DNA of 64,000 nucleotides, taken from NCBI GenBank assembly GCA_951406725.2, contig OX597815.1, positions 137,206,001 through 137,270,000 of the forward strand, given 5' to 3'. Shown piece after piece: positions 3,040-55,690 of the stretch. Within the stretch, counting starts at the first letter, position 1. Every line of letters starts with the position of its first letter. The notes beneath the pieces were generated by a model. The model was not told the origin of the DNA. It saw only the letters and a program-made list of their open reading frames with translations, and made no database searches. The stretch comes from Octopus vulgaris (Eukaryota). Both the position numbers and the translations under genes were made by a program.

Positions 3040-4087
3040 TTAATCATCAATGTACTTTCCGTGATTATCTATGACTTCCTTCCATCTATTTACAAGCTTT
3101 TTAATCCCATCAATGTAAAACTGTTTTGGTTTCAAAGCGAAGAACTCTAAAATGTCAGTTTCGACTCCTCCTGGCTTGCGAAAGTTATGTCCCCCAAATG
3201 ATTCTGTAAACTACGAAACAAATGGTAGTCTGAAGAAGCAAGGTCGAGAGAATAAAGTGGATGAGGAATTTTTTCCCAACCAAGCTCTTCCATCTTCTAT
3301 GATGTGATCTTTGCAGCGTGGGGCTGCGCATTGTCCTAATGAAACATCACTCCTCTTCGATTCACTAAAGCGGGTCTTTTTTTCTTCGAAGCTTGGTTCA
3401 AACGCTCTAATTACTGACAGTAGACTTGAGCATTGATTGTTGCATTAGGTGGTAACAATCCAAAGTGAATTACTCCTTTGCAATCCCACCAGATAGAGAG
3501 AAGAACCTTTTCCCCATGAAGTTCCCTTCTCGGTTGTGGTTGAGCTTTTCCCTTTTACCAAGCCACTGTTTACGACGTTTAACATTTCGATAGAAGATCC
3601 ATTTTTCGTCACTAGGCACGAGTCTGTCCAAAAAGGGTGAAATGAGTTCGCGAGAACTGAGAGACGAGCAGATGTCAACTCGAGATTTGCGATTGCTTTC
3701 GGACAATTCATGAAGCACTCATTTTCCAAGTTTGGGAACCTTTCCAAGATGTTGAAGATGACGATAAACAGTTGTATGGTTTGAACTAAGCTTTATTGCC
3801 AATTCTTCAACTAATAATGCAGGATTTTCTTCAAGTAATGCTTCAAGGAGCTTATCATCAAACTCAACAGGACATCCTGTTCGACCTTCATCTTCAAGGC
3901 TGAAATTTCCGCTTCTGAATTTTGCAAACCATCTTCTGCAATTTCTTTCATTCAAGCATTCTTTCCCATACACTGAGTGTATGTTTCGAGTCGCTGAGGC
4001 TGCAGAGTTTCCTTTTTTGTACTCATAAAGCATTATGTACTTCAAATTTTCTTTGGATACTTCCCTGTTAGAAAGTGTTTTAATCAA
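3040..4087 (-). pseudogene. Mariner transposase pseudogene (frameshifts and stops)
   Basis: HTH part (MLYEYKKGNSAASATRNI...RRWFAKFRSGNFSLEDEGRTG), SDEKWI, H*DNAQPH and YSLDLASSDYHLF motifs spread over several frames. Confidence 0.9.
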
Positions 4088-4244
4088 AGAAATTTTAATT
4101 CTATTTTTCTGTAAAATAATATTTAATTAGTTTAAATGCACACAAATGCATAAAAATAATTTTTATTTCCATTAAGCATTCTAAAATACTGTTAAATTTC
4201 ATTTAAATTTCATAAAAATCGGACAGAATTTATGGGATGACCTA

Positions 4245-7650: not shown

Positions 7651-7680
<30 letters not shown>

Positions 7681-7687
<7 letters not shown>

Positions 7688-8636
7688 CAATATGTTTATA
7701 ATCCAGAAACATGATATTCACAGATAACCGCCAGACTTCGTATTCGTTTTCTATTCCTTCTGTTTTGCATATGTGAATTACAGGGTCTGTCATGCCCGGA
7801 GTCCAACTTTGATAGAAATAAGCATTCTTGACTGCTATTTCTATTTTTCGGTATGCGGTCAAGCAACCTGTTTTGCCTGTCCCTTTTTCTTATATACAAT
7901 ATATATACTGAACTTTACAGAAGTTCCTGCCGGTAATCGGCTATATTTACATACCGAATTCTACCAGTAAATAATTGGGGTTTTTTTAAAGCCTTTATAG
8001 AAATTATTTACTCTTATCATTATATTACTATTTGGATTTTTCACTCCCTTTGACAACCTATTTTTGTAATGCGCATGGCAGAATTTTGGAGGGAAGATTT
8101 ATGAATTCAAACGTCTATGTAGATTTAGCCTTTGCTCACTTTCTTCAAATATTTTGATGTCGCATGGTCAGAAGGTTTGAGGTACGTAGCATTTGATAAA
8201 TCTATGATAAATCTTTTTCAATGGAAAGCTGTGCTGAAGAAGGATGTGAAATATATATGAAATATATATGAAATATATATCAAAAATATATGGAATATAT
8301 ATTCAATATGTTTATAATCCAGAAACATGATGTTCACAGATAACCGCCAGACTTCGTATTCGTTTTCTATTCCTTCTGTTTTGCATATGTGAATTACAGG
8401 GTCTGTCATGCCCGGAGTCCAACTTTGATAGAAATAAGCATTCTTGACTGCTATTTCTATTTTTTCGGTATGCAGTCAAGCAACCTGTTTTGCCTGTCCC
8501 TTTTTCTTATATACAATATATATACTGAACTTTACAGAAGTTCCTGCCGGTAATCGGCTATATTTACATACCGAATTCTACCAGTAAATAATTGGGGTTT
8601 TTTTAAAAGCCTTTATAGAAATTATTTACTCTTACC

Positions 8637-8641
<5 letters not shown>
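7681..8641 (+). mobile_element. Non-autonomous HHR-bearing element (family D), ~1.5 tandem copies of a ~616-bp monomer inside (TA)n
   Basis: 7686-8020 is repeated almost identically at 8302-8640; both ends abut (TA)n; a hammerhead is present; second locus at 12685-13335. Confidence 0.8.
8229..8339 (+). ncRNA. Type I hammerhead ribozyme with long AT-rich loop II
   Basis: CUGUG-CUGAAGA-A-GGAU[~70 nt]AUCC-A-GAAA-CAUGAUG-UU-CACAG. Confidence 0.7.
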
Positions 8642-8689
<48 letters not shown>

Positions 8690-12520: not shown

Positions 12521-12688
<168 letters not shown>

Positions 12689-12725
12689 CACATATGCAAA
12701 ACAGAATACGAAGTCTGGCGGTTAT

Positions 12726-12837
12726 CTGTGAACATCATGTTTCTGGATTATAAATATATTGAATATATATTCCATATATATTTTGGTATATATTTCATAT
12801 ACGTTGCATATATATTTCACATCCTTCTTCAGCACAG
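12726..12837 (-). ncRNA. Type I hammerhead (family D, inverted arm)
   Basis: Same core and helices as 8229-8339, on the minus strand. Confidence 0.7.
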
Positions 12838-12923
12838 CTTTCCCTTGAAAAAGGTCGCATGGTCAGAAGGTTTGAGGTACGTAGCATTTGATAAATCTAT
12901 GATAAATCTTTTTCAAGGGAAAG

Positions 12924-13036
12924 CTGTGCTGAAGAAAGATGTGAAATATATATGCAACGTATATGAAATATATACCAAAAATATATATGGAATATATATT
13001 CAATATATTTATAATCCAGAAACATGATGTTCACAG
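12924..13036 (+). ncRNA. Type I hammerhead (family D)
   Basis: CUGUG-CUGAAGA-AAGAU[loop]AUCC-A-GAAA-CAUGAUG-UU-CACAG; one stem II mismatch. Confidence 0.65.
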
Positions 13037-13352
13037 ATAACCGCCAGACTTCGTATTCGTTATCTATTCCTTCTGTTTTGCATATGTGAATTACAGGGTC
13101 TGTCATGCCCGGAGTCCAACTTTGATAGAAATAAGCATTCTTGACTGCTATTTCTATTTTTTTGGTATGCGGTCAAGCAACCTGTTTTGCCTGTCCCTTT
13201 TTCTTATATACAATATATATACTGAACTTTACAGACGTTCCTGCCGGTAATCGGCTATATTTACATACCGAATTCTACCAGTAAATAATTGGGGTTTTTT
13301 TTAAAAGCCTTTATAGAAATTATTTACTATTATTATTATATATATATATATA

Positions 13353-13992: not shown

Positions 13993-13994
<2 letters not shown>

Positions 13995-14695
13995 ATATTG
14001 GCAGGGCTGGACTGCTAGGTAGTCGGCCGTATGCTAGAAACAGATCATCAACGATCAAACTACAAAGGAAATTCTCTAGAGGAAAAACTCAGCGAACACC
14101 AGAACCAAATTTGGCGGGCAAGACAGATGAAAATTTATATAAAAAACAAACTTAAATGCATGCCTCGGTTTCGGCCTTTAACAAAAGAATTACTTACATA
14201 ATTCAAATGTCCGTGGCTTCATCAATGCATTCGGTCAGTGTAAATGCAAACTGAAAAAACTAACCCCAGGTTTCTGTGCCAAGACAGACACGTGCTTAGT
14301 TTTACCGATTACATCAGGGATAAAATTTCAAATGTCTTGGTTCTGGCGCGCTAAGAAATTCCTGAAGCGAAGGGCTGCAGTAAATAATTCACTGCGGTTA
14401 GTGCTTACTACTAGAGGACGTATTTATTTCAATATTTAAATAATGAGGGAGATAAATTAATATTAATTTTAATATCAATTTAAAACCAGTAGTCTAGCAT
14501 ACAAAAAATCTGAGAAGTCAGAGAAAATTCTAATATATGTGTATATTGGCAGGGCTGGACTGCTAGGTAGTCCGCCAAATTTGGTTCTGGTGTTCGCTGA
14601 ATTTTTCCTCTAGAGAATTTCCTTTGTAGTTTGATCGTTGATGATCTGTTTCTAGCATACGGCCGACTACCTAGTAGTCCAGCCCTGCCAATATA
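13993..14695 (-). mobile_element. Non-autonomous HHR element (family B): ~548-bp monomer plus ~30-bp restart plus 124-bp inversion
   Basis: tattggcagggctggactgctaggtagt at ~13996 and ~14544; 14572-14695 is the reverse complement of 13993-14116; abuts (TA)n. Confidence 0.85.
14155..14231 (-). ncRNA. Type I hammerhead (family B), variant core
   Basis: AAUGCA-UUGAUGA-A-GCC[~37 nt incl. GUAAGUA]GGC-C-GAAA-CCGAGG-CA-UGCAUU; C3U and U16.1C changes suggest this copy may be inactive. Confidence 0.6.
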
Positions 14696-15755
14696 CTAGC
14701 CACAGGGCTAGCCACACAGACGGGACAGATAACAAAGTAGAGCTTTTCTTTTTTGGGGAAAAAAACAAGTGGGGTAGGTTTTCGATCAAAAGGGATCGTA
14801 AAAGGGAAAGAAGAAGAGAAAAAAGGAAAGAAACAAAAGAAAAGAAAAAAGAAAATAAAGGAAAAAAGGGGAAAAACGATCAATAGGGATATCACAGTGT
14901 CATGATGTAAGGTGCAAAGGGGGAAGCGGATAAGGTTTATCCGTGGGAAGAAAAGCCTACGGAAAAGACCATGGTAACCTCGGTCAATATTGTTAAATGT
15001 TACCACATTTGTTTACAAGTGGGTAACCCTCTGGTTTTAAATTTTCGGGTTCATAGGATTATGCTCAAGGTGGCTTCGTCATTCATACGTGCCATCCTTG
15101 CTACATTCACCCATCTTTTTTTAAAACATTCGCTAGACAAAACTTGCCTCTCTACTCTCACTTTCCTTTTCAAGTGATACTTGAAGAAGTTGATGAGAGA
15201 TTGACCAGAGAGGTAAGTGTTTGTCTCCAATCCTTTCAGACGTGTCCACCAGATATATTCTTTCGCCATAGCCACAACGATGATGAAAATAGCTCTTCCT
15301 TCCCGTTTGAAGGAAGGATGCGTGACAATATTGACGATAGACTCGGCTGATAAACCGACTCGTCCCACACGTGACAGCAGTTGTTCGACATAAGCCAACA
15401 GGTCGGGAATTGTTGGACACTGCACGAGTGCATGCAGAACGGTTTCGTTGCTCTGGCCGCATCTCGGGCAATTCGGCCCCGTGTTTCTCGAGCCGTGTCT
15501 GTAGAGCTTATCCCGAACGGGTAGCGCTTCTCGGTAGCACTGCCAGGCCAGGGATCTCTGAAAGTTGTCCATGGGTCCTGGCCCGAAAGTCGTCCTGAAC
15601 AGGCGGGTCAGGTATTCCTCATCGACGTCCAGATTCGCCCCGAGCTCGTTGTCGCACCTCCCCTCCACTAATCCCCTATAGAATGCTTGGCTTGTGTTGG
15701 AGTCACTCAAGGTCGACCCGAGAGGGCAGAGTTGCCCTTCCTCGGCCTCTTTTTG
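14696..15755 (-). mobile_element. Tx1/L1-clade LINE, 5'-truncated 3' fragment (zf-RVT C-terminus plus 3' UTR)
   Basis: ORF 15051-15755: LAWQCYREALPVRDKL...CPRCGQSNETVLHALVQC...IWWTR; the N-terminus of the called ORF is a (GATA)n artefact. Confidence 0.8.
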
Positions 15756-15765
15756 ATAGATAGTC

Positions 15766-15869
<104 letters not shown>

Positions 15870-16342
15870 GAAAGTAAGAGCCAAGGATCGAGGTGTAGGA
15901 AGAAAGTGAGCTTCGAGTAATCCGTAGAAAATATATAGAAAGCACCTTTCAAGGACGATAGTGGTTTATTGTAGCGGAAGGTTGTGTATTTTTTCCATGT
16001 GGAAGTACGGTAAACTGAAAAAAATATTTTATATGTCACGGTAGGCAGTCAGTGTTGCCAGATATGCGAATAAAAATCCAAGAGTTAAGGATTGGAGTAG
16101 ATAAAATCCAGGCTTTCATAGTGAGTGAAACATCGGAAGTGGTAAATATCCAAGCGAGCTGTATGCTTCAGTCGTTAGGATGCTCATGTTAACACATGGA
16201 GGAATCGATTAAGCATATATATGTATGTATATATGTATGTGCGTATATATGTATGTATGTATGTATGTATGCATGTATGTATGTATGTATGTATGTATGT
16301 ATGTATTATGAGTCGATCTATGTATACACATACATTATATAG

Positions 16343-24575: not shown

Positions 24576-24772
24576 AGATCGGTAGCCACTACACGTATTT
24601 TTTTCTCTCCTTGTTTCTCTGCTTGCTTTTTTCTGTGTCCCTTTCTGTAGAAGAGCGTAGGCTCGAAACGTAAAAGAATTTTTTCAATTTCCTGAGCGTT
24701 ATGCTAATACATCTGTTTGTTTTATGCACCATCTGTCTTCGTCTTTTGTTTTTTTTTCATGAACTCTCCCCC

Positions 24773-24775
<3 letters not shown>
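24575..24775 (+). mobile_element. ~200-bp HHR-like element (family A)
   Basis: Close copy at 43828-44030(-); diverged copies at ~6190-6400 and ~36310-36510; flanked by microsatellites. Confidence 0.75.
24641..24676 (+). ncRNA. Minimal hammerhead variant (CUGUAGA core)
   Basis: CUUU-CUGUAGA-A-GAGC-GUAG-GCUC-GAAA-CG-UA-AAAG. Confidence 0.55.
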
Positions 24776-24837
<62 letters not shown>

Positions 24838-24838
<1 letters not shown>

Positions 24839-25546
24839 TCCGTAAATATTAGAGAGCCAACTTTGAATATGTTAACTCTAAGTGCTAGAAATAGACCCAA
24901 CCGGTAAAGTTAGAGTTAACATATTCAAAGTTGGCTCTCTAATATTTACGGATAAATATGAATTTGTATCCCCGGTTTTTGTGCTAGGCCGCTTGGTGTT
25001 AAAATAAGGGTATTATTGAATTAATATCTATAATTTTATTCACCCTCATTATTGAATGTATTGATTTGATATGCTGCAGTAAATATTACATGCTGTATTC
25101 ACTTCCACTTAGCATTTACTTTCGGCGGGAAATTTGTAACTACAACCCTGAATGTAATTCATCGGACCATAGGAGAATCGTCGCTTGTAAGGGTCTGATC
25201 AATTATATTGACAAATGTTGCTGACGAATCATAGACAATTATGTAAGTATAATCTGCATATTTTGTTAATGAGGAAACAATTGTACAACATTAATCCATT
25301 ATTTAGTTGTAATTCAATTTCATAGCGTTGACTGTAGTGCTATTTCTATGTGGAATTATCATTGGCGACTTTACCGGTTGGGTCTATTTCTAGCACTTAG
25401 AGTTAACATATTCAAAGTTGGCTCTCTAATATTTACGGATAAATATGAATTTGTATCCCCGGTTTTTTGTGCTAGGTCGCTTGGTGTTAAAATAAGGGTA
25501 TTATTGAATTAATATCTATAATTTTATTCACCCCCATTATTGAATA
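24838..25546 (+). mobile_element. Non-autonomous HHR element (family C): 5' inversion plus ~487-bp monomer plus ~140-bp terminal direct repeat
   Basis: 24838-24910 is the reverse complement of ~25368-25440; 24910-25057 is repeated at 25397-25545; (TA)n on both sides. Confidence 0.9.
25214..25292 (+). ncRNA. Type I hammerhead (family C), palindromic helix III, long loop II
   Basis: AAUGUUG-CUGACGA-A-UCAU[~36 nt incl. GUAAGUA]AUGA-G-GAAA-CAAUUG-UA-CAACAUU. Confidence 0.85.
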
Positions 25547-25644
25547 TATATATATACACACACACATATTGTGCCCTTTTCACAATATGTGTGTATGTGT
25601 TCGTATGTATATATATATGTATGTATGTGATATATATATATCTG

Positions 25645-25675
<31 letters not shown>

Positions 25676-25712
25676 GTATATATGTTTTTATGTGTATATA
25701 TATATATATATA

Positions 25713-25959
25713 TTGGTAAAACGGTAAGATAACAAAAGAAAGAAAGAGACCTCAATATTATGTAAATAGAGGAAATTTATCTATACAATAATATGTTACA
25801 TTACTCGATAGTCAAGATAAAACTCTGAGTTTCAGATGCCGAAGTGGAAATCCACAACACCATCTCTTCGGTTATCTGGCTATTTGCTAAATAGCCAGAT
25901 AACCGAAGAGATGGTGTTGTGGATTTATCTTGACTATCGAGTAATGTAACATATTATTG

Positions 25960-25960
<1 letters not shown>
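25713..25960 (-). mobile_element. Fold-back HHR element (family F)
   Basis: Near-perfect hairpin 25786-25959 with a 3-nt loop; sister element at 30475-30754; terminal remnant at ~18146-18170. Confidence 0.85.
25816..25876 (-). ncRNA. Type I hammerhead (family F), U4C variant
   Basis: GAUAA-CCGAAGA-GAUG[22 nt]CAUC-U-GAAA-CUC-A-GAG-UU-UUAUC. Confidence 0.7.
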
Positions 25961-26009
<49 letters not shown>

Positions 26010-26107
26010 TGCATACATACCCACCTTTGCATTTCATGTAAATGTATACGTACTTACTCATATGTTTAGATCAATATATATGAATGTGTGTAACTATGTA
26101 TGTACGC

Positions 26108-28049: not shown

Positions 28050-29410
28050 CCTGCACATTGCTACCATCCTGGTTATATGAACATTAAACGAAGCATCACC
28101 CTTCATATCAATCCTCAAATCAAGCACTGTGTTCGACTGACTTTGTGAACACTGTTGACGATCTGAAAGCTTGACTTCCAGATTACTGGAAGCTAAACAC
28201 GTCACTCCTGACGTGCAAAGCCTACAGTTCCGGATTAGAGAATTAGTGAAAAGGGCGTTAACAGGAGCCATCATCAATAACAACTTGTGGTGCGCCCTAA
28301 AAATAGGCATTAAATTTCTGTCACGTAGATATAGCACAGTTTTAGAGTTAGAAAAAATAGACTAGAAAGGAACTTAGCACACTAGAAGAGGCACTAAAAT
28401 CTGAAAATGCTTCTAACGTGTTGGCAGCGAGATTGACTCTAGACCAACACACCAATGCCAAGCACGAAGGTTGGATTGTCAGAACTAAGTTACGTGCAAT
28501 GAGACAAGGGAAAATCAGCGCTGCGAGATGGCCCGCGTAGTAGAGACCCAACATGGCAATAATGCCACCATAGGGACTTTGATCGACCAAAATGGATGCA
28601 CGGTTAACGAACCCGACAAAATGTGTAAGATTCTTCACCAGCACTTCGCTCAGCTGTTCGGGACGAGCGGTGGGCCGGATCGCGAGATGGACTTCTCAGA
28701 CTTCCTGGTTGGTTTGCAGGTACTCTCAGCGCAGGAGGCCGATCACAGCTGCGGAAGTAGAAGAGGCCCTATCGGACTGCGTTCGGAGCAAGTCGCAGGG
28801 TCTAGATTGTCTGCCCTACGAGTTCTATTGTAATATGTCAGACTTGTTTGGGAACCTATTGGCAAATATCTACGTCGCCTGGCAACAGAACAGGAGCATC
28901 CCTAGCTCTGTGAGCCGGGGGACCGTGGTGCTGCTAAGTAATGACCCAAACAATGGGGACGTTATAGATAATTTTAGGCCCATCACTTTTCTTAATGCAG
29001 ACCTGAATATGTTGGCCAATGTACTAGGCAAGAGATTGGCGCATGTCGTCGACAAACTGGTTGGGAAGGCACAAACATGTGCAATTCCATCCAGAACAAT
29101 CCACGACAGCCTCCACCTCATACGCTACACTATAGACAAGGTGGGTAATAATACTGGTATTGGAGGGGTGCTGATACATTTAGATGAATATAAAGCATTC
29201 GATAAGGTTGACCATCACTATTGGCGGCAGTACTCGAGGCGGCATGGTTTGGACCGGACTTCCGCGGTTGGATCACCGCCTTATACGGAAACATTAAATC
29301 GGTTGTTCAGATGAACGGTTATGTTTCAGAGCATCGTGTGTTCGATTCACCAAGGATGTCCCCTATCCTCCCTTATGTATGTTCTGACCCTTGAACTATT
29401 ACTGCAGAGT
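28050..29410 (+). pseudogene. Tx1/L1-clade LINE ORF2 (reverse transcriptase) decayed fragment
   Basis: KSQGLDCLPYEFY, NFRPITFLNADLNMLA, AQTCAIPSRTIHD, LDEYKAFDKVDH and IHQGCPLS motifs with frameshifts. Confidence 0.88.
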
Positions 29411-30474: not shown

Positions 30475-30749
30475 TGATAGAAATGGTAAGACAACAAAAG
30501 AATGAAAGAGTTCTCGATATTATGCAAATAGAGGAATTTATCTGTAAATATAATATGTGACACTAATTCGGTAGCCATGCTAAAATTCCCAGTTTCGGAT
30601 GTCGGGGCGAAAACCTAAGCCGCCATCTCTTCAGTTATCGGGCCATTTTTTTCGATGGCCCGATAGCTGAAGAGATGGCGGCATGAGCTTCCGCCCCGAC
30701 ATCCGAAACTCGGAATGTTTGCATGGCTACCGAATAATATTTTATTTAC

Positions 30750-30754
<5 letters not shown>
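30475..30754. mobile_element. Fold-back HHR element (family F), both arms with hammerheads
   Basis: Arms ~30539-30646 and ~30655-30754; GAUAR-CUGAAGA-GAUG...CAUC-C-GAAAC at 30579-30639(-) and 30662-30722(+). Confidence 0.8.
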
Positions 30755-30825
<71 letters not shown>

Positions 30826-42589: not shown

Positions 42590-42898
42590 TATATATATAC
42601 ATAGGAAGTTTGCTTCCTAGCCACATACTTCCGAGTTCAGTGACTTCTGTTATAGCCTCGGGCCGACCGAAGACTTGTGTGTGGATTTGGTAGACGGAAA
42701 CTGGATTTTATCTGTTTCACTCCCTGTTTCGATCTTTATTCGCATTTATAGCAGCTCAAGGTGCTAACCGTGAGCTTTAAAATAGTTTTTTCAGCGTATC
42801 GAACTTCGATATGGGAATAGCTTAATACTTTTGATGCCAATAAATTATAATTTTTCCCAAACTTGCTACATATATGTATATATATATATGTATATATA

Positions 42899-43497
42899 GA
42901 ATTAGGGCTTAGTAAAATAAATTACTTTGCCACATACTGAACTTAGTAGAAATAGCAGCCAAAAAAAAAAAAATTTTCTTAGCATTTCTACTACTTAAAG
43001 AAAATTTCTCTCAGATAATGTTTACTCCAGACAGCTCACGAAGGTTTGGAGGTAAATACAGAAAAATATCACAAGTACATAGATCGTTTGAGTACGTCAA
43101 CGTTTCAAGATTAGCCAAATAAAATCAGCATTTCTTTCGTCAGCTCAAAATTTCTTAATTTGGATTTGGAAACACTAAAAAGAAGGAACTTTACCTATCA
43201 GCGTACTTGTCGCTTCAGATGAACCACTCCAACTAACAGTGTCAACAAATTCAAAATGCGCAGGCGTAAATCTCTGCACTCCCCATTCCACCCACGTAGT
43301 AGTAGAAATGCTAAGAAAATTTTTTTTGGCTGCTATTTCTACTAAGTTCAGTATGTGGCAAAGTAATTTATTTTATTTTACTAAGCCCTAATTATATAAT
43401 GTAATATTTTGAATTCGCCTTAAATGGTCCTTTTACATACTGAACACTTGGTGAAATTGATTAATTAATTAATTTTACCCTCAATTGTTGATATTAT
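42899..43497 (-). mobile_element. Non-autonomous HHR element (family E) with inverted arm
   Basis: 42899-42995 inverted at 43297-43393; right arm extends to 43497; both ends in (TA)n; shares its 3' motif with family D. Confidence 0.85.
43087..43149 (-). ncRNA. Type I hammerhead (family E), canonical
   Basis: UUUGAG-CUGACGA-AAGA[22 nt]UCUU-GAAA-CGU-UG-ACG-UA-CUCAAA. Confidence 0.88.

Positions 43498-45457: not shown

Positions 45458-45460
<3 letters not shown>
44823..45460 (-). mobile_element. Tandemly duplicated SINE-like segment; second copy cut at the Penelope insertion
   Basis: 44823-45006 is similar to 45277-45460; tRNA-like head near 45100-45170. Confidence 0.65.
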
Positions 45461-45500
<40 letters not shown>

Positions 45501-45629
45501 TAAAAAGAATTCCAACCTTGTCTGATTTTCACGTTTTATTTACAATCTTATAATGATATATTATAAGATAATATATTATAATTGAGTAAAATAAAATGAA
45601 ATAGTAGAATGTTAAATATTCATTCTGAT

Positions 45630-45674
45630 TGAACTAGTACTTTCATGCATTGAATTCTGCAATCTTCGGGTTCA
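45630..45674 (-). ncRNA. Minimal hammerhead in Penelope pLTR (left arm)
   Basis: Mirror of 50454-50498. Confidence 0.8.
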
Positions 45675-46168
45675 TGTAGTAGTGTTGACAGTCATGCTTC
45701 ACAATTTTTGACTGTAGCAAGATGAGTGATTCTGTGCTATAAATACAGCTGGGTAGGCTCCAGAGTGCTAGGTTTTGCAAACTGTATTCTGACCAATCAG
45801 TGTGTAGTATCACTCAATTACTTAAGCTGATTGGTTGGTTGAGCTGATTGGTTTAGGCATCACGCTTTGTTGGACAGGTCAAGAGTCCTGTATCTTGACC
45901 CTGGCCGAAGCAGCAATTGTTGGGTTATTTTTAGAAATGTTGTAAATATCCTTTGTCAGAGATTTTTATATTTTTATATTTCAATTGTCATCATCATCAT
46001 TGTCAGCACCTTAATTATTGTTGCTAGTGGTGATGGTGGTGGCAATAGAACTTTTAACCCTAAATAAGATAATTTTCCTGCTATCTTCGTCTTGATCACC
46101 TTTAGTATTGTTGTTGTTGTTAGTGGTCATGGTCGTAGCAGTGGAAGTAATACCTCTAAGTATTATTA

Positions 46169-48262
46169 TTATTGCTTATTTAGCTTGGGTTCGAATTTAT
46201 CAATAAAATTCTTTTCTCTGATTTTCCTCTCGATTTCACTTGGGCTGTGTAATTTGTAGAATGGAAATATTATATATATTTTCCGACCACATGTTGCTAG
46301 GTGGTTACTCAAAGGTATCTGACGGACCTCTGGGTCTCTAATCTGTTGCCGGTGTACACGTGAGCGTTCTAATAGTGCGTTTCCCGTCTGACCTACATAT
46401 ATTTCTTCACAATTTGGGCATTTGATGCAGTAAATTAAATTTCTGCTTTTGCAGTTCATATTCGCGTTTGTGAATATTTTCCCGGTTTTTGTGTTTATAT
46501 ATTGACCGGTATGTATGAATTGGCATGTGCCACATCGGCTATCATTGCATTTAGATACCGTGAATGTTTGGTCTTTGTTGCTGAGGTCAAATTTTGCCTT
46601 TGTTAGTAATGTTTTCAAGTTTTTAGGCTGTCTTTTACTAAGCACCATAGCTCGATCCTTGATTATGTCTTTTAATTCATTACTTTGGGCAATGATTGGA
46701 AGGTTTGCTTTGGCAATGTTGAAGATATTCTGGTGACATGGGTTGTGTGTCACTATGAATGGTATGACTTGTTCTTGTTTTCCTCTTCCTTGGGTTGTCC
46801 TAAGTTGTTGTATAGGTATTTTTATAGCCCGCTGTATGCCATTTTCTATAAGTAGAGATGGGTATTTTTGTTTGAGCAAAAATTCTCTTAGTTCTATTAG
46901 GCGTTTGTTCCTGATATTTGCATCTTCTACAATAGTACAAATTCTTCTGGCTAGGCAGTATGGGATGTTACGTTTTGTATGTGGTGGATGGCACGACTTA
47001 AAATTTAGGTATTGATGTGTGTCTGTGTGTTTATAGTATATATCTGTGGTGATGGTGGTGTCATTTTTAATTACCATTATATCCAGGAATGGTAATTTGG
47101 TACTACTCATCTCCTTTGTAAATTTGAGAGATGGGTGTAGGTTGTTCAGGAGGATATTGAACTCTTCCAGAGTATTTAGAGATTCTGTCCAGATTATGAA
47201 ACAGTCGTCTAGGTATCTCTTCCATGCCTTTTCAATATACTTTCTAAATCCAGTGCCATAGTTTACCTCCACCTCTTGGTAGAGTTGTTCTTCTAAGTAT
47301 CCCATTACAGAGTTGGCGTAAACGGGAGCAAACCTCGTTCCCATCGCCGTGCCTCTAATTTGGATGTAATTCTTTCCATTGAAGAAGAATGTGTTATTTT
47401 CTAGAATAAGTTTGACTGTGTCTAATATAAATGCCACTGTGAATCTGCTGGGAATCACTTCTCTATGTTTTTCTAACCAGTATTTAATCGCCTTTATTCC
47501 TAAATCGTGTGGAATATTGGTGTAGAGGCTTACCACATCAAAACTTAGCAAAACTGAATTTGTTTCTGTTGTTTTGGGAAGATGGGACAGGAAGTCGATG
47601 TCATCCCTGATGAAACTTGGTATGTAAGTACATAGTGGTTTCAAAACAATGTCAATAAAATTGCTTAGACGGTGTGTAGGGCATGCTGGACCAGCTATAA
47701 TAGGTCTAAGTTTTAGGTCTTTTGGATGTAATAATTTTATGTACTCACTTTCTTGTTCTTTTACTGCCTGTTGAATGTTTTTTGATTTGTGTATTTTTGG
47801 TAAGCCGTAGAAGTTGCTGGGTTTTGGTTCAAAATTGGTGATGTAGTCTTTTTCATTATCCGTAAGTGAGTTGTGGTGTGTTGAAATCAGGTTGTTGATC
47901 TTTTTCATGATGTGGTGGTCTATATTTGCGGGTATTTCACAATAGAAGGTTGTATCCTTCAGTTGGTCTTCAACCAAATCCTTATAGTATTCGGTATCCA
48001 TAATAACAATTGCACCACCTTTATCTGCTTGTTTAATTATTATTGTTTGATCGTTTTGTATACGTTTACATGCAGACATCTCTGATTTGCTAATGTTTGG
48101 CCTAACATTGGTATTGCGTCTAAGGGGAAATTTAGACAGGATATCAATGTATTGGTCAAGGTAGTTATTTCTTCCTTTTGGTGGGGTGAAATTTGATTTA
48201 TTCCTTACTAGGGATTCATCAATCTCATTACTTTTGTTAGCGAAGAATTCTACACAACTCAC
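46169..48262 (-). CDS. Penelope-like reverse transcriptase plus GIY-YIG endonuclease (5'-truncated, frame open)
   Basis: IKQADKGGAIV, FYGLPKIHK, LRPII, FDVVSLYTNI, GTAMGT, RYLDDCF, LPFLD, DIYYKHTDTHQYL, CNDSRCGTC linker, NLIYCIKCPNCEEIYVGQTG, FEPKLN; the called start lies at the inversion junction and is not the native start. Confidence 0.95.
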   Translation of the reverse strand: MSCVEFFANKSNEIDESLVRNKSNFTPPKGRNNYLDQYIDILSKFPLRRNTNVRPNISKSEMSACKRIQNDQTIIIKQADKGGAIVIMDTEYYKDLVEDQLKDTTFYCEIPANIDHHIMKKINNLISTHHNSLTDNEKDYITNFEPKPSNFYGLPKIHKSKNIQQAVKEQESEYIKLLHPKDLKLRPIIAGPACPTHRLSNFIDIVLKPLCTYIPSFIRDDIDFLSHLPKTTETNSVLLSFDVVSLYTNIPHDLGIKAIKYWLEKHREVIPSRFTVAFILDTVKLILENNTFFFNGKNYIQIRGTAMGTRFAPVYANSVMGYLEEQLYQEVEVNYGTGFRKYIEKAWKRYLDDCFIIWTESLNTLEEFNILLNNLHPSLKFTKEMSSTKLPFLDIMVIKNDTTITTDIYYKHTDTHQYLNFKSCHPPHTKRNIPYCLARRICTIVEDANIRNKRLIELREFLLKQKYPSLLIENGIQRAIKIPIQQLRTTQGRGKQEQVIPFIVTHNPCHQNIFNIAKANLPIIAQSNELKDIIKDRAMVLSKRQPKNLKTLLTKAKFDLSNKDQTFTVSKCNDSRCGTCQFIHTGQYINTKTGKIFTNANMNCKSRNLIYCIKCPNCEEIYVGQTGNALLERSRVHRQQIRDPEVRQIPLSNHLATCGRKIYIIFPFYKLHSPSEIERKIREKNFIDKFEPKLNKQ

Positions 48263-49959
48263 TTACGGATAATGAAAAAGACTACATCACCAATTTTGAA
48301 CCAAAACCCAGCAACTTCTACGGCTTACCAAAAATACACAAATCAAAAAACATTCAACAGGCAGTAAAAGAACAAGAAAGTGAGTACATAAAATTATTAC
48401 ATCCAAAAGACCTAAAACTTAGACCTATTATAGCTGGTCCAGCATGCCCTACACACCGTCTAAGCAATTTTATTGACATTGTTTTGAAACCACTATGTAC
48501 TTACATACCAAGTTTCATCAGGGATGACATCGACTTCCTGTCCCATCTTCCCAAAACAACAGAAACAAATTCAGTTTTGCTAAGTTTTGATGTGGTAAGC
48601 CTCTACACCAATATTCCACACGATTTAGGAATAAAGGCGATTAAATACTGGTTAGAAAAACATAGAGAAGTGATTCCCAGCAGATTCACAGTGGCATTTA
48701 TATTAGACACAGTCAAACTTATTCTAGAAAATAACACATTCTTCTTCAATGGAAAGAATTACATCCAAATTAGAGGCACGGCGATGGGAACGAGGTTTGC
48801 TCCCGTTTACGCCAACTCTGTAATGGGATACTTAGAAGAACAACTCTACCAAGAGGTGGAGGTAAACTATGGCACTGGATTTAGAAAGTATATTGAAAAG
48901 GCATGGAAGAGATACCTAGACGACTGTTTCATAATCTGGACAGAATCTCTAAATACTCTGGAAGAGTTCAATATCCTCCTGAACAACCTACACCCATCTC
49001 TCAAATTTACAAAGGAGATGAGTAGTACCAAATTACCATTCCTGGATATAATGGTAATTAAAAATGACACCACCATCACCACAGATATATACTATAAACA
49101 CACAGACACACATCAATACCTAAATTTTAAGTCGTGCCATCCACCACATACAAAACGTAACATCCCATACTGCCTAGCCAGAAGAATTTGTACTATTGTA
49201 GAAGATGCAAATATCAGGAACAAACGCCTAATAGAACTAAGAGAATTTTTGCTCAAACAAAAATACCCATCTCTACTTATAGAAAATGGCATACAGCGGG
49301 CTATAAAAATACCTATACAACAACTTAGGACAACCCAAGGAAGAGGAAAACAAGAACAAGTCATACCATTCATAGTGACACACAACCCATGTCACCAGAA
49401 TATCTTCAACATTGCCAAAGCAAACCTTCCAATCATTGCCCAAAGTAATGAATTAAAAGACATAATCAAGGATCGAGCTATGGTGCTTAGTAAAAGACAG
49501 CCTAAAAACTTGAAAACATTACTAACAAAGGCAAAATTTGACCTCAGCAACAAAGACCAAACATTCACGGTATCTAAATGCAATGATAGCCGATGTGGCA
49601 CATGCCAATTCATACATACCGGTCAATATATAAACACAAAAACCGGGAAAATATTCACAAACGCGAATATGAACTGCAAAAGCAGAAATTTAATTTACTG
49701 CATCAAATGCCCAAATTGTGAAGAAATATATGTAGGTCAGACGGGAAACGCACTATTAGAACGCTCACGTGTACACCGGCAACAGATTAGAGACCCAGAG
49801 GTCCGTCAGATACCTTTGAGTAACCACCTAGCAACATGTGGTCGGAAAATATATATAATATTTCCATTCTACAAATTACACAGCCCAAGTGAAATCGAGA
49901 GGAAAATCAGAGAAAAGAATTTTATTGATAAATTCGAACCCAAGCTAAATAAGCAATAA
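48253..49959 (+). CDS. Inverted second copy of the Penelope-like ORF (more truncated)
   Basis: Frame open from the junction (HNSLTDNEKDY...); protein identical to the minus copy. Confidence 0.92.
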   Translation, partial: HNSLTDNEKDYITNFEPKPSNFYGLPKIHKSKNIQQAVKEQESEYIKLLHPKDLKLRPIIAGPACPTHRLSNFIDIVLKPLCTYIPSFIRDDIDFLSHLPKTTETNSVLLSFDVVSLYTNIPHDLGIKAIKYWLEKHREVIPSRFTVAFILDTVKLILENNTFFFNGKNYIQIRGTAMGTRFAPVYANSVMGYLEEQLYQEVEVNYGTGFRKYIEKAWKRYLDDCFIIWTESLNTLEEFNILLNNLHPSLKFTKEMSSTKLPFLDIMVIKNDTTITTDIYYKHTDTHQYLNFKSCHPPHTKRNIPYCLARRICTIVEDANIRNKRLIELREFLLKQKYPSLLIENGIQRAIKIPIQQLRTTQGRGKQEQVIPFIVTHNPCHQNIFNIAKANLPIIAQSNELKDIIKDRAMVLSKRQPKNLKTLLTKAKFDLSNKDQTFTVSKCNDSRCGTCQFIHTGQYINTKTGKIFTNANMNCKSRNLIYCIKCPNCEEIYVGQTGNALLERSRVHRQQIRDPEVRQIPLSNHLATCGRKIYIIFPFYKLHSPSEIERKIREKNFIDKFEPKLNKQ

Positions 49960-50276
49960 TAATAATACTTAGAGGTATTACTTCCACTGCTACGACCATG
50001 ACCACTAACAACAACAACAATACTAAAGGTGATCAAGACGAAGATAGCAGGAAAATTATCTTATTTAGGGTTAAAAGTTCTATTGCCACCACCATCACCA
50101 CTAGCAACAATAATTAAGGTGCTGACAATGATGATGATGACAATTGAAATATAAAAATATAAAAATCTCTGACAAAGGATATTTACAACATTTCTAAAAA
50201 TAACCCAACAATTGCTGCTTCGGCCAGGGTCAAGATACAGGACTCTTGACCTGTCCAACAAAGCGTGATGCCTAAA

Positions 50277-50391
50277 CCAATCAGCTCAACCAACCAATCA
50301 GCTTAAGTAATTGAGTGATACTACACACTGATTGGTCAGAATACAGTTTGCAAAACCTAGCACTCTGGAGCCTACCCAGCTGTATTTATAG
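50277..50391 (+). promoter_or_regulatory. Putative pLTR promoter: three CCAAT boxes and a TATA-like box upstream of the HHR
   Basis: ccaatcag (50277, 50294), ctgattgg (50328), tatttata (50383); mirrored at 45737-45851. Confidence 0.5.
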
Positions 50392-50453
50392 CACAGAATC
50401 ACTCATCTTGCTACAGTCAAAAATTGTGAAGCATGACTGTCAACACTACTACA

Positions 50454-50498
50454 TGAACCCGAAGATTGCAGAATTCAATGCATGAAAGTACTAGTTCA
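50454..50498 (+). ncRNA. Minimal hammerhead in Penelope pLTR (right arm), U4C variant
   Basis: UGAAC-CCGAAGA-U-UGCA-GAAUUCAA-UGCA-U-GAAA-GUAC-UA-GUUCA; palindromic helix III typical of dimer-active PLE HHRs. Confidence 0.8.
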
Positions 50499-50660
50499 AT
50501 CAGAATGAATATTTAACATTCTACTATTTCATTTTATTTTACTCAATTATAATATATTATCTTATAATATATCATTATAAGATTGTAAATAAAACGTGAA
50601 AATCAGACAAGGTTGGAATTCTTTTTATTAATATATTCTTCTATACACAATCACACACAC

Positions 50661-50703
<43 letters not shown>

Positions 50704-54823: not shown

Positions 54824-55690
54824 AATCTAATCAACAACATGAACAATAATATTAACTTTACCATGGAATACAGTAAAACTCAACTACCATTCCTGGATAT
54901 ACTAATCATCACAAGAGATAAGATCATTGAAACAGATATTCGCTACAAACAGATTCTAAACAATACTTACTATTCTCCTCATGCCATCCCAAACACACGA
55001 AGAATAATATCCCCTTTAATCTAGCTTGAAGAATCTGCACAATTGTCTCGAAGCCTGAAAGTTATAATAAAAGACCCCAGGAACTAAAACAAGTACTGCT
55101 TAAAAGACAATATCCATTAATGCTAATAGACAACGGGATAGTACGTGCCAATGCAATCAATATCGAAGAACTACGAAAAACGAAAAACGTTCCAGATACA
55201 TCCAATAATCTACTCTTTATTACAACACACAACCCAAGAAACACAGAGGTTTACAGTATTATCCACCAGAACAGATCACTATTAAAATACAACCCAAGAA
55301 TGAAACAAGCATTCGAAATACAGAAAATAATCAAAAGTAAAAGACAAAGTCCCCCAAAAATTCTTAACAAGTGCTAAATTACCTTCCACAATTCCTACAC
55401 CAACAGTAAAAAAATTTGACCATCTCAATTGCGGAACCTGCATCAACCTTAATGAGGACACAACATACAAATTCAAATCAGGACATACTTTTACCGTCAA
55501 AAATCACATGTTCTTCATGGAATGTAATATATGCTGTCAAATGTCAAGGATGTAATGAAGATTACACAGGTCAAACAAAGCTTACTCTAAGAAATTGACT
55601 GACCATTCACCGACAACAAATATGAGACCCCAGCACTAGATAGATTCCACTGAGTAGTCGCATAGACATATGCGCAAATATTTGCAAATA
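54824..55690 (+). pseudogene. Decayed Penelope-like RT thumb plus GIY-YIG fragment
   Basis: INFTMEYSKTQLPFLDILI, SCHPKHTKNNIPFNLA*RICTIV, NVIYAVKCQGCNEDYTGQT, HRQQI*DP; homologous to 46169-48262. Confidence 0.9.

Follow-up and report, generated by a model that had tools for sequence, protein, structure and literature searches.

A hammerhead-bearing, ORF-less 487-nt repeat family in Octopus vulgaris: a probable non-LTR retrozyme mobilized by Penelope-like elements

Introduction

Penelope-like elements (PLEs) are described as typically combining a partial tandem, the pseudo-LTR (pLTR), with an adjacent 5' inverted copy and a microsatellite target (PMC8557442, PMC3846280). In EN+ PLEs, an optional tail of 30–40 nt is attributed to two start sites of the reverse transcriptase (RT). 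In vitro, a lizard PLE was reported to nick and extend both strands of AT-rich DNA and to start cDNA from fixed internal sites, with uncleaved RNA as the main substrate and with hammerhead-dead RNA being inserted normally (PMC11167929). A circular RNA template was proposed for all PLEs in 2014, and the same source describes the short palindromic helix III of the usual metazoan hammerhead ribozyme, whose cleavage is poor in the monomer and proceeds in the dimer (PMC4209133).

Retrozymes of mussel, a mollusc, are reported to have units of 350–390 nt and RNA that is mostly circular (PMC7229834). It has been argued that retrozymes are non-autonomous PLE derivatives, and 8 of 9 Xenopus retrozyme dimers were reported to stay uncleaved in vitro (bioRxiv 10.64898/2026.07.22.740005). 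In that preprint, Li et al. call a locus "active" when two consecutive units carry complete hammerheads, which is a criterion for loci and not for family membership.

Here, we analyze a repeat, termed Family C, within a 64-kb stretch of Octopus vulgaris DNA (the window). A sequence-only reading had interpreted its layout as the footprint of a circular RNA. We consider Family C to be, with a probability of about 0.8, an ORF-less non-LTR retrozyme that was likely inserted in trans by the RT and GIY-YIG endonuclease of a PLE.

Results and Discussion

Anatomy of the insertion

The Family C insertion is about 0.7 kb long and comprises 1.3 tandem units and an inverted arm within a TA microsatellite (Table 1). 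The 487-nt monomer proposed in the sequence-only reading was recovered, with a repeat spacing of 487 that becomes 488 past a 1-nt T indel. The repetition of its first ~140 bp was also recovered and measures 149 nt, differing from the 148 nt at the start of the unit by 2 substitutions and 1 indel. The claimed 73-bp inverted copy across the monomer junction is exact (73 of 73 positions, or 74 when one base common to the flank is counted), covering 29 nt upstream and 44 nt downstream of the forward start, and it forms with 24910–24953 a 44-bp palindrome with a spacer of 28–29 nt. Because both ends of the insertion abut (TA)n, a target-site duplication is unreadable.

The absence of an ORF, also part of that reading, holds when the unit is read cyclically on both strands, the longest ATG ORF having 48 codons and the longest stop-free stretch 73 codons. 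A tblastn search with the PLE protein of the window gave no match near 24.8–25.5 kb, and an ORF for RT and GIY-YIG is absent from Family C, which is not an autonomous PLE. No tRNA was found in the 64-kb window.

It might be supposed that such a structure is an assembly artefact or a local fold-back duplication, given that the locus lies between microsatellites. This is very improbable, since 3 differences separate the two copies, other sequencing runs contain the same ends, and the anatomy recurs in element D, in Family A and in the PLE of the window, all described below.

Adjoining Family C, a palindromic repeat occupies 25719–26024 and 30481–30807, and a relaxed scan gave a hammerhead-like match within it at 25871 on the minus strand, which probably derives from the palindrome. 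Elsewhere in the window, ORF fragments at 3719–4126, 15051–15965 and 28489–29314 resemble what we take to be pieces of a mariner-type transposase, a LINE RT or zinc-finger proteins.

Table 1. Coordinates of Family C and of the principal elements compared with it (positions of the window).
Feature	Position	Strand	Description
Left flank	24773–24837		(TA)n microsatellite, likely target
5' inverted arm	24838–24910	-	Exact reverse complement of 25368–25440
Forward unit	24910–25396	+	487 nt, 33% GC, non-coding
Type I hammerhead motif	25214–25292	+	7-bp stem I, CUGACGA, 46-nt stem II, GAAA, GUA; 1 in 5000 dinucleotide-shuffled units fits the same motif rule
Self-complementary helix III octamer	25277–25284	+	Monomer: 2 bp and 4-nt loop; two copies: 8-bp duplex, -6.4 kcal/mol
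Terminal redundancy (pseudo-LTR equivalent)	25397–25545	+	97% identical to 24910–25057; ends at recurrent 3' end
Right flank	25546–25570		(TA)n, then (CA)n
Element D	13994–14695	-	Unit of 548 nt, collinear with that of Family C; inverted arm of 124 nt; redundancy of ~35 nt
PLE (RT and GIY-YIG)	45459–50695		Inverted head to head between TA runs; 3' UTR with a hammerhead variant; no homology to Family C

The hammerhead motif

Stem I of the motif pairs 25214–25220 with 25286–25292 and encloses CUGACGA at 25221–25227, a stem II at 25229–25272 (-10.0 kcal/mol), GAAA at 25274–25277 and GUA at 25283–25285. Cleavage is predicted 3' of A25285, in agreement with the GUA site near 25285 in the sequence-only reading. 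The designation of the hammerhead as canonical is appropriate for the core and for helix III, which is of the metazoan type, but not for the long stem II or for position 10.1–11.1, where an A.G stands in place of the usual G-C and may weaken catalysis. Likewise, the count of one hammerhead per monomer is correct for the unit, but the whole insertion has only one, as the 149-nt redundancy stops short of a second. When folded without constraint, the core is paired (-13.6 versus -11.9 kcal/mol), placing the catalytic fold 1.7 kcal/mol above the minimum.

Rfam calls no hammerhead at Family C, either at the gathering threshold or at E<=10. At gathering there were 0 matches in the whole window, and at E<=10 the region 24700–25700 gave 58 matches, mostly miRNA-type hairpins on the palindrome and the TA runs and none of them a hammerhead. 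A metagenome scan with a 19-nt hammerhead pattern returned 69 loci with a best extension of 25 nt, all of which were taken as chance.

Among 40 of the 58 variant rows from the contigs described below, 6 variants fall within 25214–25292, and all of these lie outside the core, stem I and helix III. In one sub-family, 25228 and 25273 are altered jointly, giving a U-A pair, and a 322-nt contig with 24 differences has at most 1 of them inside the motif (P about 0.01, a value weakened by the fact that contigs of repeats can be chimeric). Judging from this pattern of variation, the hammerhead appears to be under constraint.

Family copies in sequencing runs

Parts of the unit are present in 20 of 24 sequencing runs, none of which contains half or more of its words, and the 13 runs with shares of 0.22–0.45 carry four organism labels. 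Contigs from 4 of the 24 runs were aligned to one unit, with X15–X17, X19 and X20, whose shares are small, being left out. The runs consist of assembled contigs, which cannot show RNA ends, strand or circles, and the RNA type of X14 and X18 is a guess that is silent on expression. Family C is multi-copy, being represented by 42 contigs from organism A (X1) and 86 from organism B (X5). The identity of these contigs to the unit ranges from <90% to >99%, and sub-families occur under at least two organism labels.

The ends of the copies are informative as to how they were made. Among the loose ends (17 of 29 rows), five of the eight on the 3' side enter TA runs at the two end sites used at the window locus, namely at 25061 (X1, X5 and X18), in a variant via 25030 (X5), and at 25446 (X5), while the other three are indel variants. 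The ends at 25061 in X1 and X18 may represent the window locus itself; the X5 variant ending there differs in sequence. The two recurrent 3' ends lie 155 and 260 nt beyond the cleavage site and are 105 nt apart. On the 5' side, nine loose ends (among the same 17 of 29 rows) are scattered over 25039–25209. Fixed 3' ends with scattered 5' ends are the polarity expected of target-primed reverse transcription. The sequence-only reading had expected permuted copies, but random permutation was not seen, the 3' ends recurring at two sites instead.

A go-back joint from 25472 to 24985 closes the cycle in X1, X5 and X18, a diverged X5 variant wraps from 25451 to 24985, and overlapping contigs of several runs cover the complete cycle. 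Among the pieces listed, no unit is spanned whole by one contig, and arrays longer than 1.3 units were not seen in these short contigs. The fraction of aligned sequence that continues into unlike sequence is 0.04 and 0.07 in the runs labelled as DNA. One X1 contig and one X14 contig join the hammerhead part (25185–25282, ~90% identity) to 380 nt of unlike sequence, which may belong to a PLE body. The sequence of this loose end, upstream of 25185, has 0 matches in the window.

As a side observation, in the hammerhead sub-family of X1 and X14, which has U-A at 10.1–11.1, (TA)4 and 380 nt of unrelated DNA stand in front of the motif. This sub-family may represent the pLTR of a PLE, a sister family or a copy that has been truncated.

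Related elements and PLEs in the window

Element D, which is ORF-less, has the full anatomy of Family C, with inversion and tandem. The two are collinear along the whole unit, with 244 of 475 aligned positions identical (51%) and a local score of 69 (maximum of 300 shuffles, 48). In the local alignment, their forward starts coincide within about 3 nt and the ends of their inverted arms within about 10 nt. The hammerhead of D carries two core changes, C3U and U16.1C, and its circular fold has a z of -5.7.

Two further ORF-less families were observed. Family A (7663–8643 and 12684–13341) has a unit of ~600 nt, a hammerhead (8234, 12929 and 12832) whose stem II is very long and AT-rich, and a fold z of -6.1; both copies end at one 3' site in TA runs, one having 1.6 units and the other being inverted. 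Family B (42895–43490) has a hammerhead on the minus strand (43143) with a non-palindromic helix III, and its inverted arm lies 3' of the hammerhead, a polarity opposite to that of C, D, A and the PLE, which would imply the antisense strand as template. The similarity of Family C to Family A and to the minus strand of B is within that of shuffles, and the plus strand of B has a marginal similarity to the 3'-end region of Family C (52 versus a maximum of 51 in 300 shuffles).

The PLE at 45459–50695 contains an open RT and GIY-YIG frame of 697 codons. Its arms are 98.9% identical, and we call the element young. The hammerhead variant in this PLE, CCGAAGA at 50459 and 45669, is palindromic and lies 142 nt from the 3' end of the element. 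Among the best 120 homologues listed, the named ones are from bivalves or from symbiont bins of bivalves, in keeping with a molluscan host. A second, broken PLE fragment is present at 54857–55676, its protein being about 44% identical to the first. Alignments of the Family C unit with the 3' regions and UTRs of both PLEs scored within 300 shuffles, and an autonomous partner was not found in the window. The young PLE is a candidate source of the mobilizing protein and an example of the machinery likely to mobilize Family C.

Identity of Family C

Family C combines a type I hammerhead of conserved core, a short non-coding unit with GC below 45%, and a repeated, dispersed family, and it agrees with an animal non-LTR retrozyme in those sequence features that can be tested; its cleavage and circles are predicted. 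The locus itself has one hammerhead, where an "active" locus in the sense of Li et al. has two consecutive complete ones (bioRxiv 10.64898/2026.07.22.740005). As for the machinery, Family C has a pLTR with a 5' inverted copy, and TA runs follow its 3' ends in X1, X5 and X18. Mobilization by a PLE is proposed because the partial tandem, the 5' inverted copy and the (TA)n target match the published PLE signature, and it is favored further since the coding PLE of the same window has the head-to-head inversion and TA flanks, and D the whole anatomy.

The same layout raises the alternative that Family C derives from an autonomous PLE by internal deletion or as a 3'-terminal fragment, with a remnant between two pLTRs and an accompanying inverted pLTR, rather than being a retrozyme family in its own right. 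This layout equals the textbook figure of a PLE, pLTRs alone suffice for mobilization in trans, and the two contigs linking 25185–25282 to 380 nt of other sequence would be compatible with it. We nevertheless regard this as unlikely: contigs from several runs span the whole cycle, the diverged X5 variant also wraps, the 51%-identical relative D retains the whole unit in collinear order, and no coding remnant is present.

Taken together, we retain the retrozyme reading. The sequence-only reading was right in describing a reverse-transcribed, hammerhead-bearing, ORF-less repeat made from a template that continued across an uncut or re-ligated site, but the layout that it took as a circle footprint is typical PLE structure.

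Template of the insertion

We propose that insertion would begin with transcription of a more-than-unit RNA of Family C. A PLE protein would then nick both strands of an AT-rich target and prime cDNA at fixed sites internal to the RNA, as described for the lizard element (PMC11167929). A cDNA of 636 nt would extend from 25545 to 24910, through the uncut hammerhead, and a second cDNA of 73 nt, on the opposite strand, would start from 25440, with both being joined head to head; fold-back copying instead of joining would yield an identical product. Finally, the palindromic helix III is predicted to confine cutting mainly to RNAs with two tandem units, from which 487-nt monomers would be freed that are able to circularize.

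A cleaved linear monomer is ruled out as template, because the cDNA crosses the cleavage site. We give about even odds to an uncleaved linear tandem or partial-tandem transcript, which we place slightly ahead of a circle because the ends are fixed, the forward starts of C and D coincide, and the lone dimer-type hammerhead should stay uncut. Routes other than these two are unlikely.

The model of the sequence-only reading, in which a covalently closed circular RNA of 487 nt served as template and was traversed 1.3 times, is possible, although we lean against it. It accounts for a cDNA that crosses the cleavage site, excluding the cleaved linear monomer; it has precedents in the 2014 proposal for PLEs (PMC4209133) and in the mostly circular retrozyme RNA reported for mussel (PMC7229834); and the identities of the passes (97%) and of the arm (100%) are compatible with one template. 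Against it, a long PLE with coding capacity is likewise inverted and flanked by TA, the main in vitro substrate is described as uncleaved RNA (PMC11167929), and the ends are fixed rather than random, with the forward starts of C and D differing by about 3 nt. The go-back joint, found in three runs, is explained by a partial tandem alone, because a tandem gives the same joint without a circle. Similarly, the two recurring 3' sites are equally compatible with priming at fixed internal positions of an uncleaved tandem RNA and of a circle.

The predicted fold of the circle bears on this question in both directions. Its z of -2.7 and -2.1 (no shuffle as stable among 60 and 40, respectively) would suit a structured circle, but one control stretch of six (-3.1) and the PLE UTR (-2.9) reach such values as well. 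Furthermore, variants in a diverged contig break 11 of 23 predicted pairs, with a null mean of 10.1 expected at random, and covariation for the whole-circle fold was none. These data also bear on the notion of an endogenized viroid-like or HDV-like replicating RNA, which the size and the hammerhead might suggest. This is extremely unlikely, as the ribozyme is on one polarity only (one motif on the plus strand and none on the minus strand), the GC content is 33%, the ends are of PLE type, and the fold is branched and without covariation.

The layout of the insertion does not itself show circular RNA, the circle footprint not being diagnostic. By analogy with mussel, circular RNA of Family C may well exist (PMC7229834). 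A combined reading, in which Family C is an abundant ~487-nt circular RNA copied by PLE RT from fixed internal start sites, is rather doubtful. If it were true, the common register of C and D would reflect a conserved cis-acting signal used in PLE priming and strand joining, and Family C would be a minimal natural substrate for the circle-versus-multimer question of Penelope tandems.

Significance

Hammerhead circles as PLE templates (PMC4209133) and retrozymes as non-autonomous PLEs (bioRxiv 10.64898/2026.07.22.740005) are already published, and the significance of Family C, which adds a retrozyme family in a mollusc, is modest. Among the literature listings searched, no published report of cephalopod retrozymes was found, and the supplement of bioRxiv 10.64898/2026.07.22.740005 may list cephalopod cases. 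In a 2026 paper on Octopus vulgaris repeats (PMC13282606), neither "ribozyme" nor "retrozyme" occurs in the main text. Several short families with fixed ends and no ORF lie in this one 64-kb window and would serve well for testing which template PLEs copy.

Comparison with known systems

Family C can be compared with three described groups. Non-autonomous Chlamys PLEs such as MRC1 are also ORF-less, with pLTRs and head-to-tail copies made via PLE machinery (PMC8557442). They are green-algal, and MRC1-type elements are described as having 3' ends in common with known autonomous families, unlike Family C in the comparison within the window.

EN+ PLEs are described with the same partial tandem, the 5' inverted copy, the palindrome at the junction, the AT-rich or (TA)n target, two 3' end sites and a dimer-type hammerhead (PMC8557442, PMC3846280, PMC4209133, PMC11167929). 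Family C differs from these in being without an ORF and in having end sites 105 nt apart rather than a tail of 30–40 nt.

From animal non-LTR retrozymes, Family C differs in its 46-nt stem II, in the A.G at 10.1–11.1 and in having 1.3 units at this locus. Its length of 487 nt is above the ~170–400 reported in PMC7229834 and inside the 51–972 reported in bioRxiv 10.64898/2026.07.22.740005. As those two sources describe them, these retrozymes share with Family C the low-GC non-coding unit and the type I hammerhead, the tandem or partial-tandem and dispersed copies, and the co-occurrence with PLEs (PMC7229834; bioRxiv 10.64898/2026.07.22.740005).
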